NCBI GenBank assembly: GCA_900544395.1
Contig: UQVC01000008.1
Coordinates: 423 to 64,422 of the forward strand
Direction: 5' to 3'
Source of the DNA: an uncultured Ruminococcus sp.
Lineage (GTDB): Bacteria; Bacillota; Clostridia; Lachnospirales; Lachnospiraceae
Length of the DNA stretch: 64,000 nucleotides
Made by a program: the position numbers and the translations under genes
Shown here: positions 1,221 to 7,251 of the stretch, piece after piece
How positions within the stretch are numbered: position 1 is the stretch's first letter
How the letters are laid out: each line of letters opens with the position of its first letter
Notes under the pieces: model-generated
Databases searched by the model: none
The model's input: only the letters and a program-made list of their open reading frames with translations
Told to the model about the DNA's origin: nothing

Positions 1221-1224
1221 CATA

Positions 1225-1277
1225 CATCAAAAAGAGGTAAGATAACACCCTCTGCAAAAAAGGTATCGTTATCTTAC
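1225..1277. repeat. Perfect 13-bp inverted repeat GAGGTAAGATAAC / GTTATCTTACCTC with a 21-nt loop, at the convergent ends of two recombinase genes
   Basis: Read directly from the sequence. It overlaps the stop region of the minus-strand recombinase fragment. No U-tract follows on either strand. Confidence 0.7.
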
Positions 1278-1460
1278 CTCAACAAAATTTGTTCCCGACC
1301 AGCCGTCATCAATATATTCATCAATGACATTCAAATGATGTTCTTTTGCATATAGACGCAACATACTTCTTTGTGTGGTAATGCTGGAACTTTCGCCTTG
1401 TAATTCATCATCTCGGCTCAACCTAAGATAAAGTGCAGTATTGTAAATCTGTTGTTTCAT
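1269..1460 (-). pseudogene. Serine recombinase N-terminal fragment (63 aa resolvase catalytic-domain start, 3'-truncated)
   Basis: YLRLSRDDE...SIxxQR...DDGWSGTNF matches the canonical resolvase/invertase N-terminal catalytic motif around the active-site Ser. A strong RBS (AAAGGAGG) precedes the ATG. The ORF stops after 63 aa where a ~500-aa protein is expected. The block is AT-rich. Confidence 0.6.
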
Positions 1461-1571
1461 TGTCAGTTATCCTCCTTTATAACTAACCCGTGTTTACAAT
1501 ACCTGCTTGCAAGTAAAGTATAACATGGGTTATTTTTCACATTCAATCTATTTCTTACAACTGCACCGAAT

Positions 1572-1814
1572 TTATGCGATTGTCTGCTTTGCTTTCTCAA
1601 GCATAACATCAGTCAGAAGTTCTTCCATTGTCTTCCCCTTTTCGGGAAAATGCTCTTTTACAACAATCTTTGTCTTTCCTCTGTTTCCAATGCCACACTT
1701 GTTATTTTTCTTTTGAATTGTTTTTACAGTATTATCAATAACACATACCCCCTTTCTGTAAAAATCTTTTCTAAGCAATTCAACGGCTTTTGTCATAGCC
1801 CACAGGAGTTCCAC
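1572..1814 (-). CDS. Hypothetical small protein (80 aa)
   Basis: ORF only. No recognisable motif. AT-rich codon usage like the island. Confidence 0.25.
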   Translation of the reverse strand: MELLWAMTKAVELLRKDFYRKGVCVIDNTVKTIQKKNNKCGIGNRGKTKIVVKEHFPEKGKTMEELLTDVMLEKAKQTIA

Positions 1815-2059
1815 CTCTGCATAGTTCTTATGTAGCCGTACCCATTGCGTGCGACGCTCTTAACGCTCAAGCTGTGGCTGTACGGGAGTATCATTATCTG
1901 ACAGCACAGGTCATGGCGATAAAAGAGGACAAGTCTTTTACAAGAACACAAATAGAGTTCGCTCGCTTTTGCAGGGGAAAGGTCATGGCGTATTTGTTTC
2001 AACGGCTAGCTGTCTGTCAAACGTATTGAATTGCTTTATTCAGTTGTCAAAGAACCCGA

Positions 2060-2810
2060 AAGAAGAAAATCATCTTTCCTATATACCGCGTTGGAAAAGA
2101 GGGGAAATGTAACCAAAATTCAAAACTTTTTCCATTATTAGTACAAATGGAACGGTTCATTTTGGCAATCAACGGTTGATTTTCTCCTTTTTCACTACTA
2201 TCTGTACAGCAAACGTCCATTTGTTAAGTTGAAATGGAAAAATTTTAACTTCTTTTCTTGCACCATATAGGGATAGAAATTGTCATTTTGCTAAGTTAAT
2301 GACGAAAAAAGATTATTCTTCTTTTCACACCCTAACTACCCAAACCATACCGTTACTGCCAACAATAGAATGAAATATTTTCTTTGCACCATATAGGGAA
2401 CGGAAACCTTAAATTGTTAAGTTTAGAATAAAGTATTTTCCTCTTTTCACATCAACACTCAACTGCTAATGCCTGTTTGAATACAAATCAAGAAATGACA
2501 TAATAATTTCTTCTTTCTTGCACCAACACTCGACACGAGTAAGATATTTGAATACAAATTTAAGATAGTTTTTCCTCTTTTCATAGAACACTGTCCATTA
2601 ATCACGAATTTCCGTCATTTTTTCAAAACTTTTTTCTTCTTTCACATCATATAGGGACAGCAAGCCCTGATTTAATGACCTATTTTCAAAAAAAGTTTAG
2701 ATTTCCTTTTCTCGCACCATATCTGTACGCAAGTAGCTGTTTTGTTGCAGATTTGATAAAAAAGTTCATTTTTCTTTTCCGTTCCATATAGGGAATAAAA
2801 ATGACTCTTT
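2060..2810. repeat. Array of about 10-11 degenerate direct repeats (minus-strand consensus about TCCCTATATGGTGCAAGAAAAGAAG, with GTACAGATA / GAGTGTTG variants of the 5' half) at about 57-77-bp (mean ~65-bp) periodicity. No ORF of 60 aa or more in 2041-2840.
   Basis: Repeat cores on the plus strand sit near 2196, 2252, 2308, 2375, 2440, 2513, 2575, 2636, 2706 and 2783 (e.g. cttcttttcttgcaccatatagggatagaaa, attttctttgcaccatatagggaacggaaa, cctcttttcacatcaacactcaactgc). The array lies immediately 3' of the Rep_trans gene. Confidence 0.6.
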
Positions 2811-2840
2811 GCTGACTAAATCTGAAATTTTTCAATTACA

Positions 2841-5961: not shown

Positions 5962-6027
5962 CCAATTGAACCAAATCGCTGCGCCACAGCCTTGGCAGGC
6001 CATCGCGCAGCGATTTGGTTCAACTGG
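5962..6027. repeat. 23-bp inverted repeat (1 mismatch) with a 20-nt GC-rich loop: ccaattgaaccaaatcgctgcgc ... gcgcagcgatttggttcaactgg
   Basis: Read directly from the sequence. It sits between the dfr gene's 3' end and the DinB-like gene. No T-run follows. Confidence 0.6.
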
Positions 6028-6106
6028 AATTTGTCTTACAACAATTTATATATGCATAAAAAGCAATATATTTATGAAAACACCCTAAATCCAAAATTTA
6101 CTCAAT

Positions 6107-6580
6107 TCATTTTTTCCTTACATAAAATGTTCTCGTATATTTCACTTCCTCACCAAGTGTTTCCCCTATCAAAACTTCAAAATCATTGATATCAAATTCT
6201 GGAAAGAATGTATCTCCATCTTCAATATTTAAATCTACTTCTGTGATATACATTTTATCTACTATTTGCAAAGCTTCCTTAAATAGTCCATATCCACCAG
6301 ATATGTATACATCTCGTCCTTTAGCCAATAATAATGCATCTTCTAATGATTTAACTGAAACTAAATTATCTCCTTGATACTCTGTTGTGGTGGAAACAAC
6401 AATATTCATTCTATTAGGCAACGGATGACCGATTTCTTCATAAGACTTTCGCCCCATAATAACCACATTACCCGTTGTTAACTCTCTAAATTGCTTTTGT
6501 TCTCCCTTTATTTTCCATGGTATATTACCATTCTTGCCTATAACATTATTCTTTGACCTCGCAACAATCAAACCTATCAT
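6107..6580 (-). CDS. dfrF: Trimethoprim-resistant dihydrofolate reductase, DfrF-like (157 aa)
   Basis: Canonical DHFR (MIGLIVA...NVIGKNGNIPWKIKGE...VIMGRKSYEEIG..PLPNR.NIVVS). From memory the sequence looks identical or near-identical to enterococcal/streptococcal DfrF. RBS GGAGG. AT-rich context. Confidence 0.8.
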   Translation of the reverse strand: MIGLIVARSKNNVIGKNGNIPWKIKGEQKQFRELTTGNVVIMGRKSYEEIGHPLPNRMNIVVSTTTEYQGDNLVSVKSLEDALLLAKGRDVYISGGYGLFKEALQIVDKMYITEVDLNIEDGDTFFPEFDINDFEVLIGETLGEEVKYTRTFYVRKK

Positions 6581-6882
6581 CTATTTCATCCTCCATAATA
6601 TGATGTCGTACCTGTGATTCCATCAAGTGCACCACATCTTAACAAACTCAAAATTATCTCGAACTAACCAGCTCGACAAATTCCTTTTTTGTCTTCATCT
6701 GCATTATATCATATTGTTATAAGCATTGCCATTTCTTTTCTGCTTTTGAAAAGTTACTTATCAGCCTATGTTTTGTAAAGGGTGATATTCAGCATTTCTC
6801 ACGCAACAAGCCCTTGACAAACCATAGACTAATAAGTTTTAAGGTAATCAAGCAGAAATGAAATAGTCTGCTGTTTCACGGC

Positions 6883-6921
6883 AACAAAAAAGAGATACCA
6901 ACACACTTATGTAGTATCTCT
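6883..6921 (-). terminator. Rho-independent terminator for the minus-strand HTH gene
   Basis: AGAGATAC-N15-GTATCTCT stem. An A6 run sits on the plus-strand 5' side, giving a U-tract on the minus transcript. Confidence 0.55.
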
Positions 6922-6982
6922 TAGTCTAGTAGCAATATTCTTTTGTTTGCAAGCAGGTAAACATGGGCTGTTTCTTAATATC

Positions 6983-7138
6983 TTTTTGTTTGGGAAACAC
7001 CCCTCTCCCATTTTGAAACGGCTTTATCGGAAAGAAACAATCGTTCTGCCAGTTCTTTTTGTGTGTAGCCTTTTTCCTTTCGCAGCATTGCCACAAATGC
7101 TCCAAACTTTTGATTGTCGATTTCATACATGTTCCCCA
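6983..7138 (-). CDS. XRE-family HTH protein, 51 aa, probably a truncated regulator (MYEIDNQKFGAFVAMLRKEKGYTQKELAERLFLSDKAVSKWERGVSQTKRY)
   Basis: Canonical Cro/C1 HTH. The frame differs from the junk 95-aa ORF listed in the track. It ends right after the HTH. Confidence 0.55.
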
Positions 7139-7251
7139 TCTCCTTGTTGTTTTTATGATTTTAGTGTAAAAGATTTTCCTTCTTTTGACAATCGACTGCC
7201 GGTAGAATGGCATTTTTTTTGCTTATTATTCGCTTATTTTCCGAAAAATAC

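Follow-up and report, generated by a model that had tools for sequence, protein, structure and literature searches.

A dfrF-carrying integrative and mobilizable element in an XRE-family regulator gene of an uncultured Ruminococcus sp., interrupted by an integrative and conjugative element

We analyzed an AT-rich block of DNA from an uncultured Ruminococcus sp. (Lachnospiraceae). The block lies at positions 1283-7001 of a 64,000-nucleotide stretch of contig UQVC01000008.1 (assembly GCA_900544395.1); we refer to the whole stretch as the window. We found that the block is very probably the larger part of an IME (integrative and mobilizable element) that carries the trimethoprim-resistance gene dfrF, that is integrated in a gene for an XRE-family regulator, and that was later split by an integrative and conjugative element (ICE). 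We defined the anatomy of the IME, the attachment (att) sites of both elements, the empty chromosomal site, the precursor state, the target motifs and a chimeric joint within the IME.

We propose that the element arose and would behave as follows. A serine recombinase would integrate the IME at a GG dinucleotide within the S-K-W-E-x-G codons of XRE-family (HTH_3) genes. A MobT relaxase would nick the element's own origin of transfer (oriT), and the pore of a conjugative element would be used for transfer. A Holdemanella-type backbone and a cargo of the type found in Dielma and Enterococcus faecium would have been joined in the 40-bp nic region by relaxase-mediated or homologous exchange. An ICE with a DUF4368-type serine recombinase would then have inserted between the S-G-T-N-F and D-R-P codons of the IME recombinase gene. 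With its recombinase split, the IME would be unable to excise by itself; the oriT, relaxase and resistance genes are still intact. The finding of modules that are 100% identical across orders or classes may be a sign of mobilization by a helper.

The block differs from its surroundings in base composition and codon usage. In 500-bp windows, the GC content was 0.45-0.51 over positions 1-1250, 0.31-0.41 over 1250-7250, and 0.45-0.50 beyond. The refined block (1283-7001) is 35.3% GC, compared to 44.5% for 7002-64000 and 48.1% for the first 1282 bases. The lowest other stretch of this size in the window is 37.8% GC (z = -3.4 for the block). GC content at third codon positions (GC3) was 0.23-0.32 in six genes of the island and 0.43-0.51 in seven neighboring chromosomal genes. 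The drop in GC reported in a preliminary description of this DNA is thus confirmed, but the ends given there (1221 and 7250) are not the true ends, which are at 1283 and 7001. All of the genes named there are present; one of them, a truncated XRE regulator gene, is the chromosomal integration target and not part of the island.

We located the right end of the block by comparing the same locus in relatives. Contigs from the same species were found by a look-up of the exact product of the neighboring nucleoside hydrolase gene. Nine of the ten conspecific contigs (L065-L073) had an uninterrupted 245-aa XRE gene, the empty site. The tenth had a different remnant of the same IME family in the same truncated XRE gene. 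Homology between the window and the empty site begins at 7000, and homology to other copies of the dfrF element stops at 7001. It follows that the truncated XRE gene belongs to the target, as its 5' part (7002-7139, minus strand). Positions 7002-7250 are chromosomal and contain this 5' part and its promoter. The right terminal arm of the IME, GTTTGGGAAACA, together with the crossover dinucleotide CC (7000-7001; GG on the gene strand), occupies 6988-7001, as defined by alignment with the empty site and with seven copies in other genes.

The remnant in the tenth contig, from another strain of the species (L064, 7300-9750), is a family member that carries cat and a glyoxalase/bleomycin-resistance-like gene. 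Its relaxase gene (HTH-Rol_Rep_N) is truncated, cut by an insertion sequence (IS; rve), and the chromosomal two-component and ATP-binding cassette (ABC) genes beyond have been lost.

The precursor of the arrangement in the window is on record. In the window, the interrupted XRE gene encodes a 51- to 54-aa HTH_3 fragment (6975-7139, minus strand), in which the frame reads ...SKWERG and then continues into the IME-derived residues VSQTKRY and a stop codon. The 54-aa form was absent from the records searched. The 51-aa form was on record, and a look-up with it led to a locus of the same species (L083) with the same IME at the same site, an intact 537-aa recombinase gene and, beyond it, the 3' part of the XRE gene. 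This locus is 99.92% identical to the window over 1283-12000. There are nine differences, one at 3218 and eight within 1827-1985. These eight span 160 bp, corresponding to a pemK RNA motif (described below) and the sequence upstream of it; the cluster resembles a short conversion tract derived from a different member of the family. Using the length of the intact element in L083, the block represents 5,719 bp of a 7,190-bp IME.

The four att sites (attB, attP, attL and attR) could be reconstructed at the nucleotide level. From L083 and L065, attB (gene strand) is TGGGAGAGG[GG]ATTAAGCC. The attP site (gene strand) is GGGAAACT[GG]TGTTTCCC, with perfect inverted arms (GGGAAAC / GTTTCCC), and the predicted joint sequence of the IME attP is GGGAAACTGGTGTTTCCC. 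The two junctions (gene strand) are GGGAGAGG[GG]TGTTTCCC and GGGAAACT[GG]ATTAAACC. Integration was a simple insertion at the GG crossover, with no target duplication. The insertion point is in the codons for W-E-R-G of the 245-aa XRE gene, which adjoins an operon with a preQ1 riboswitch.

We found that this choice of target is common to the family. Approximately 38 of 44 distinct junctions in other genomes abut ..(V/I)S(K/R)WE.G codons of different HTH_3 genes, and the opposite junction of family members runs on as G..(L/M)PD(I/L).. Judged by these junctions, the IME family targets the DNA that codes for the most conserved stretch of XRE-type helix-turn-helix (HTH) domains. Such a target would offer a landing site in almost any genome.

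The left end of the block is the junction with the ICE. The preliminary description placed a serine recombinase gene of normal GC content beside the block. The gene is there (3-1220, plus strand), but it is the integrase gene of an ICE that is inserted into the IME recombinase gene. The window begins within this gene and covers the last 406 residues of its 558-aa product, in which Pfam recognizes Recombinase, Zn_ribbon_recom and DUF4368 domains. It is followed by the right terminal arm region of the ICE (1221-1282), with the arm GTATCGTTATCTTACCTCAA at 1263-1282 and an internal inverted copy, GAGGTAAGATAAC, at 1234-1246. Homology of nearly all related IME loci to the window begins at 1283. Alignment of the junction with the intact gene of L010 and with eight other ICE junctions placed strand exchange within a shared TTTG (CAAA on the plus strand, 1283-1286). 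The ICE arms are GTATCGTTATCT(A/T)AC, the crossover is in TTTG, and there is no target duplication; the left arm expected at the far end is ...GTATCGTTATCTAACGTCAGCTTT.

The insertion of the ICE accounts for the truncation of the IME recombinase. Only the first 59 of the 537 codons of the IME's own integration enzyme are in the window (1283-1460, minus strand; resolvase N-terminal domain), and the gene is intact in L010 and L083. The fragment ends ...DDGWSGTNF; the open frame then takes in four codons of ICE origin (VEVR) and a stop codon as far as 1269, giving a product of 63 aa. This exact 63-aa product was found in 1814 blocks of the assembly collection, and the same convergent ICE recombinase gene adjoined it in all eight of the places shown. 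In most of these eight, the ICE recombinase was followed by TnpW, a sigma factor, a radical-SAM RlmN-like gene, MobC and a PF03432 relaxase, TTRAP and ArdA.

Near-identical copies of the ICE are present elsewhere. Positions 1-1282 of the window are 99.2-100% identical to the ICE end in eight loci (L074-L077 and L079-L082), and a ninth (L078) matches bases 932-1282 (351 bases). Only the integrase end of the ICE is in the window, whereas the near-identical copies hold a PF03432 relaxase, MobC and ArdA, and the copy in Monoglobus (L082) also holds genes for a type IV secretion system (T4SS). The Monoglobus copy is a whole element of ~28.7 kb with a CD1110-type VirB4 and a CD1115-type VirD4, indicating that the element is an ICE. 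It sits between the halves of another serine recombinase gene, one ending ...DDGWSGTNF before the ICE-derived VEVR and stop, the other resuming at FERPDFKRM... The two junctions rejoin to an open frame, ...GTNFERP..., as expected for a simple insertion, and precise excision would restore the gene. The unoccupied ICE target, GGAACAAATTTTGA(C/A)AGACCG, was found in 30 intact members of the IME family. The ICE's own recombinase gene has a different sequence at the equivalent place, without the DNA motif that is targeted in the others.

The copies of the ICE in L074-L082 contain a radical-SAM gene annotated as RlmN (329 aa), with a cysteine-rich KTR gene ahead of it. The product may be a Cfr-like rRNA methyltransferase.

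The ICE entered after the IME had integrated, because L083 has the IME alone at the same chromosomal site. We considered whether the AT-rich block might instead belong to the ICE on its left, as cargo or as an accreted part. The block does directly adjoin the ICE integrase gene, and both are mobile DNA. However, the block is found at the same site without the ICE in L083, and the ICE is found without the block in Monoglobus. Moreover, the end of the ICE is a defined arm (1263-1282) common to all copies, and the block is equipped with a recombinase, a relaxase, an oriT and att sites of its own. We regard this explanation as highly improbable.

A different relationship between the two elements is conceivable but also unlikely. 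The two halves of the IME and the enclosed ICE might form one composite, excisable in trans by the recombinase of a related IME. There can be several family members in one genome (three loci in a Faecalimonas sp. and two in Holdemanella), the att arms of the IME are conserved between members, and the ICE of related loci has a full transfer apparatus. In addition, an ICE and an IME are consistently co-localized in Clostridioides difficile (PMC12271512). On the other hand, we saw neither a circular composite nor a second family member in the window, and L083 has the IME alone at the site. Eight other loci have the identical ICE junction with differing IME cargo; the occurrence of the same junction with many cargoes and chromosomal sites is explained more simply by repeated insertion of the ICE. 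If the composite did exist, dfrF would be on a self-transmissible unit instead of being locked in place.

The split IMEs in L075 and L077-L081 differ widely in cargo, with a complete riboflavin biosynthesis operon, an ABC transporter with two-component systems, macro-domain/SIR2-like genes or GyrI-like genes. The IME family is thus a general carrier of cargo and more than a vehicle for resistance.

The nesting might also work as a switch. Since the insertion leaves both halves of the recombinase gene intact, the IME would regain its recombinase only upon excision of the ICE, its potential helper, and excision of the IME would be timed to that of its helper. We consider this doubtful. We return to our preferred explanation, a dfrF IME that integrated in an XRE gene and was later split by an ICE.

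The gene content of the block is that of a mobilizable element. On the minus strand, the order is dfrF, a DinB-like gene, a RibD_C reductase gene, oriT, the MobT relaxase gene, a repeat array, a pemK RNA motif, orf74 and the large serine recombinase gene. The 7,190-bp element has only six genes, and none is for a T4SS or coupling protein. Since it has no mating-pore genes, the element must borrow the pore of a conjugative element. It would supply its own relaxase and oriT, and the family of the neighboring ICE is the obvious candidate helper. A search of a phage collection with 1000-7500 gave no meaningful match.

The relaxase gene, mobT (2841-4055, minus strand), encodes a Rep_trans-family protein of 404 aa with N-terminal HTH_3 and Rol_Rep_N domains (Pfam, NCBIfam); an upstream TTG start would extend it to 427 aa (to 4124). 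The Pfam matches are to Rep_trans (4.7e-74, residues 186-391), Rol_Rep_N (6.9e-31) and HTH_3 (1.6e-9). The match to the NCBIfam model for MobT, NF041493, has an E-value of 2.3e-172 and covers profile positions 1-381 of 383.

We identified a likely oriT upstream of mobT. A hairpin with the sequence GCCCCC-GTTATCT'AACAA-GGGGGGC (loop, GTTATCTAACAA) lies at 4294-4318 (minus strand), ~240 bp upstream of the mobT start, and is invariant in all loci of the family. The nick is predicted to be between 4306 and 4305 on the minus strand. For MOBT relaxases and Rep_trans plasmid origins, the published nic site has CT'AA within the 12-nt loop of a hairpin that is rich in GC (PMC9371924), and the hairpin found here fits this definition. 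An inverted repeat, GTGATA-N13-TATCAC, is present at 4191-4220 (minus strand), ~85 nt downstream of nic. Its arms covary between variants of the family (GTGATA/TATCAC, GTGTTAAC/TTAACAC and GTGACAT/ATGTCAC). The relaxase of ICESt3, RelSt3, binds an inverted repeat with a TGTCAC core 68 nt downstream of nic (PMC9371924). By analogy, the repeat at 4191-4220 is likely a binding site for the HTH domain of MobT and the counterpart of IR2 of ICESt3. Just upstream of mobT, an imperfect inverted repeat followed by a T-run (4133-4164, minus strand) is conserved across the loci of the family and looks like an operator or attenuator.

MobT resembles the MOBT relaxases of the ICESt3/Tn916/ICEBs1 superfamily (RelSt3, Orf20 and NicK; PMC6499999, PMC9371924). 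They share the N-terminal HTH and a PF02486 domain, nic as CT'AA in a 12-nt loop, and a separate inverted-repeat site tens of nucleotides downstream. In contrast to those relaxases, the one described here serves a 7-kb non-conjugative element. The second repeat is ~85 nt from nic, rather than 68 nt as in ICESt3, and its core varies between members of the family. Furthermore, the relaxase gene is followed by a long repeat array. We know of no counterpart of this array behind the relaxase gene in ICEs of the ICESt3/Tn916/ICEBs1 type.

The combination of a Rep_trans initiator and a resistance gene might also be the relic of a small pT181-type rolling-circle plasmid that entered the chromosome by recombination. 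Rep_trans and Rol_Rep_N are domains of rolling-circle initiators, and the nic sequence equals the double-strand origin motif of such plasmids. However, the protein's match to the MobT model spans it end to end, and its N-terminal HTH is a typical feature of MOBT. Intact copies in dozens of genomes are bounded by serine-recombinase att sites in split HTH_3 genes, and in PLSDB there was no free plasmid form, only an integrated copy on a 70-kb plasmid. There is little chance that this explanation is correct. The suggestion in the preliminary description that the block is the remnant of an IME with dfrF and a MobT/Rep_trans relaxase is supported.

We found that the IME has a mosaic make-up. In a sliding comparison, 1490-4282 showed 100% identity to a Holdemanella biformis DSM 3989 element throughout the aligned parts (the alignment leaves some of 3530-4030 uncovered) and 88-98% identity to the elements with dfrF in Dielma fastidiosa and on an E. 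faecium plasmid. Conversely, 4283-7001 is 100% identical to the Dielma and E. faecium copies except for one 250-bp step; the E. faecium copy is without a 155-bp segment described below. A base-by-base alignment showed that 100% identity to L049 gives way to 100% identity to L010 and L001 inside 4281-4320, 40 bp around the nic hairpin that are common to all copies. The recombinase module (1283-1490) has a third affinity: it is 97% identical to the Dielma type and has no counterpart in the Holdemanella match. On the basis of these comparisons, the IME is a chimera joined at the nic hairpin of oriT. The joint fits relaxase-mediated transfer from one oriT to the next in tandem elements and equally homologous exchange, and our data separate neither from the other.

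The closest relatives of the chimera are an intact dfrF IME in Dielma fastidiosa JC13 (NZ_HE578930.1) and the copy on E. faecium plasmid p5_70kb (NZ_CP065930.1). They have the same cargo (100% over 4283-7001) and the same backbone design, with recombinase, small open reading frame (ORF), array and HTH-Rep_trans relaxase. They differ in that the backbone is only 91-97% identical and has two extra genes (DUF3781 and GyrI-like) between oriT and the relaxase gene, and p5_70kb has two IS1251 insertions in addition to the missing 155-bp segment. Neither copy is interrupted by the ICE.

Recent horizontal acquisition of the IME is well supported by these comparisons, because nine of ten conspecific contigs are empty at the site and copies of the cargo from three bacterial orders or classes show 100% identity. 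The preliminary description had reached the same view, and mosaicism was also part of it; the absence of the block from those nine syntenic relatives and the switch between Holdemanella-type backbone and Dielma/E. faecium-type cargo bear both out.

That description went further and named Lactobacillales as the source. In this scenario, the island would have come directly and recently from a Streptococcus or Enterococcus donor. Several observations agree with it: the cargo is 100% identical to the E. faecium plasmid, dfrF is on three Enterococcus plasmids in PLSDB, the 35% GC of the island fits enterococci, and there are descriptions from Streptococcus suis of a dfrF-bearing MobT IME and of IMEs within HTH-XRE genes (PMC7168690, PMC10995628). 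However, all 62 relaxase loci that we found are from gut Clostridia, Erysipelotrichia or metagenome-assembled genomes (MAGs), with almost all in Lachnospiraceae, Erysipelotrichaceae/Coprobacillaceae and related MAGs and none in a Lactobacillales genome, in a search that covered close relatives with one genome per species. At 90% identity, the relaxase cluster takes in C. difficile. The backbone is 100% identical to that of H. biformis, and the cargo is as identical to D. fastidiosa (100%) as to E. faecium. The E. faecium copy is on a plasmid, with the family backbone broken by two copies of IS1251, and 100% identity in several hosts tells nothing about direction. Lactobacillales appear in the public records searched only as the three Enterococcus plasmids. 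A direct Lactobacillales donor seems to us improbable. Such a donor is neither shown nor excluded by these comparisons, and gut Erysipelotrichaceae hold the nearest complete relatives of both modules.

The cargo compartment extends from the att end to the nic site. The dfrF gene (6107-6580, minus strand) encodes a trimethoprim-resistant dihydrofolate reductase of 157 aa (DHFR_1). The product scores 360.3 bits against the NCBIfam trim_DfrF model (cut-off 320), and the DNA is 100% identical to the stretch of the E. faecium plasmid that AMRFinderPlus calls DfrF at 100%, in agreement with the earlier identification of the gene. A promoter scan found an extended -10 promoter-like site upstream of dfrF at 6732-6703. 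We infer that dfrF would confer trimethoprim resistance in its host. A literature search for dfrF in gut Clostridia found only unrelated papers.

The other two cargo genes are less well defined. A protein of 176 aa (4456-4986, minus strand) belongs to the RibD_C-type "dihydrofolate reductase family" (Pfam RibD_C, 8.4e-22), has weak matches to PHROG dihydrofolate reductases, and is annotated alike in the E. faecium plasmid. A protein of 218 aa (5168-5824, minus strand) has weak similarity to the DinB superfamily (NCBIfam mycothiol transferase, 7.8e-9 and 36 bits, far under the cut-off; Pfam DinB_2, E = 0.017). Between this gene and dfrF is a 155-bp segment with two hairpins (5867-6021), including one inverted repeat with 31-nt arms that are 87% complementary. 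The segment is cleanly absent in L001, L015 and L016 and present in L007, L009, L010, L040 and L083. We considered that it might be a multi-copy element, and this was ruled out, as it is not multi-copy.

The region between mobT and the recombinase gene contains what may be control elements. Directly upstream of the recombinase gene, orf74 (1572-1796, minus strand) encodes a small basic protein that is conserved in the family, called as genes of 69-90 aa in related loci. Searches of Pfam, NCBIfam and PHROG with orf74 gave no match, and a single-sequence AlphaFold model (pLDDT 57) was too poor for a structure search. Our guess is that orf74 is a regulator or a recombination directionality factor. 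A pemK RNA motif (RF02913; 1800-1897, minus strand) abuts and overlaps the start of orf74, upstream of the IME recombinase gene. The match is full-length and scores 55.1 bits in Rfam (gathering score 34.8). The motif is likely a cis-regulatory leader of an orf74-recombinase operon, and its position suggests control of the recombination module at the level of RNA. A literature search for the pemK motif found no descriptive paper in the collection searched.

Between mobT and the pemK motif and orf74 is a non-coding array (2040-2840, minus strand) of ~12 degenerate direct repeats with a period of 53-72 bp. Each unit (minus strand) consists of a variable box (tccctatatggtgc, gtacagatatggtgc or gagtgttgatgt), a purine run (GAAAAGARGAAAA) and a T-rich stretch, in that order. 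Nearly all related loci have an array of this design downstream of mobT, even where MobT is only 71-76% identical. These arrays differ in spacers and number of units, so that the design is kept and not the sequence, and logos of the units had low information outside the purine run and the ATATGGTGY box. No Rfam family matched within the array. Promoter-like sites were not enriched (21 found, 23.4 expected), and the strand folded only weakly better than shuffled sequences (z = -1.5 as DNA and -2.0 as RNA). Small ORFs, a CRISPR-like array and a single-strand origin were each considered and dropped, as there were no consistent start codons, repeat identity or structure. We can only guess that the repeats are protein-binding iterons. 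Both the array and the pemK motif might act in cis as control elements of the IME family that have yet to be described.

Two other features of the window are outside the nested elements. At 7314-9688, next to the XRE gene, is a chromosomal operon with the preQ1 riboswitch (RF00522, 48.9 bits) ahead of it. Its products are a nucleoside hydrolase, an ECF S component of the CD3073 family and a radical-SAM protein with distant similarity to RaSEA. We take it to resemble a queuosine/preQ1 salvage operon. A second, milder low-GC stretch (0.37-0.39), at 46500-53000, encodes several FtsX-type permeases in a row and an ABC ATPase, between ApbE and a PLD-like gene, and showed no mobility genes.

Several points weigh against our interpretation of the block as the larger part of an ICE-split dfrF IME, or limit it. 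The far end of the ICE is beyond the window, and so are attL, the other 478 codons of the recombinase gene and the 190 codons at the 3' end of the XRE gene; their intactness is deduced from L083 and the Monoglobus copy. Trimethoprim resistance, nicking, excision and transfer are predicted from sequence, and how and in what order recombination took place at oriT, as well as reversibility upon excision of the ICE, are likewise deduced. MobT scores 573.1 bits against NF041493, below the curated cut-off of 600. Because of this near miss, we withhold strict equivalog status and suggest that the protein would work like MobT. The oriT joint may have formed by plain homologous recombination across 40 identical bp rather than by a relaxase event. 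Finally, the regulatory part of the mechanism is incomplete for orf74, the pemK motif and the repeat array.

The kind of element, the class of target and the nesting of an ICE in an IME are already in the recent literature on S. suis and C. difficile. IMEs with a serine integrase in HTH-XRE genes have been reported in S. suis (IME_HTH-XRE; Libante et al. 2019, PMC7168690), and IMEs in such genes as well as a MobT IME with dfrF have been described there (PMC7168690; Dechene-Tempier et al. 2024, PMC10995628). Like those elements, the IME described here is small, has a serine recombinase, its own relaxase and resistance cargo, and is inside the gene for an XRE-type HTH regulator; the comparison is one of described features. 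The passages of these papers available to us give no crossover site, which here is GG in W-E-x-G codons. The host here is one of the gut Clostridia, with a MAG labeled Mediterraneibacter gnavus in the same 90% protein clusters, and the family is widespread in Lachnospiraceae and Erysipelotrichaceae.

The three-layer nesting is the same as in C. difficile, in which an aadE IME is in an HTH regulator gene and the Tn1549-family ICE Tn7740 is in the IME serine recombinase gene; the two elements consistently co-occur (Nat Commun 2025, PMC12271512). Tn7740 has a serine recombinase, a MobP-type relaxase and VirB4/VirD4; the ICE described here has its serine recombinase end in the window, and its near-identical copies elsewhere carry a PF03432 relaxase and, in L082, VirB4/VirD4. 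The C. difficile IME has a MobV relaxase and aadE, whereas the IME described here has MobT and dfrF. Tn7740 carries npmA2, whereas the ICE copies described here carry the radical-SAM RlmN/Cfr-like gene. The C. difficile paper gives no core motif for the chromosomal sites of the composite (PMC12271512); both target motifs are defined here. New in our analysis are exact crossover sites and target motifs for each of the two elements, the anatomy of oriT, the joint of the chimera at nic, the repeat array of the family and the pemK leader.

Our results indicate that a Lachnospiraceae-like gut commensal, Erysipelotrichaceae and an E. faecium plasmid share, at 100% identity, a trimethoprim-resistance cassette of clinical relevance. 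The 7-kb element that bears it can insert into any genome that has a gene for an XRE-type regulator. The chimeric joint at nic is a hint at how cargo and backbone modules may be swapped in this family. The att sites, target motifs and oriT provide exact markers with which this IME family, and the ICE that hunts its recombinase genes, can be recognized in genomes and metagenomes.

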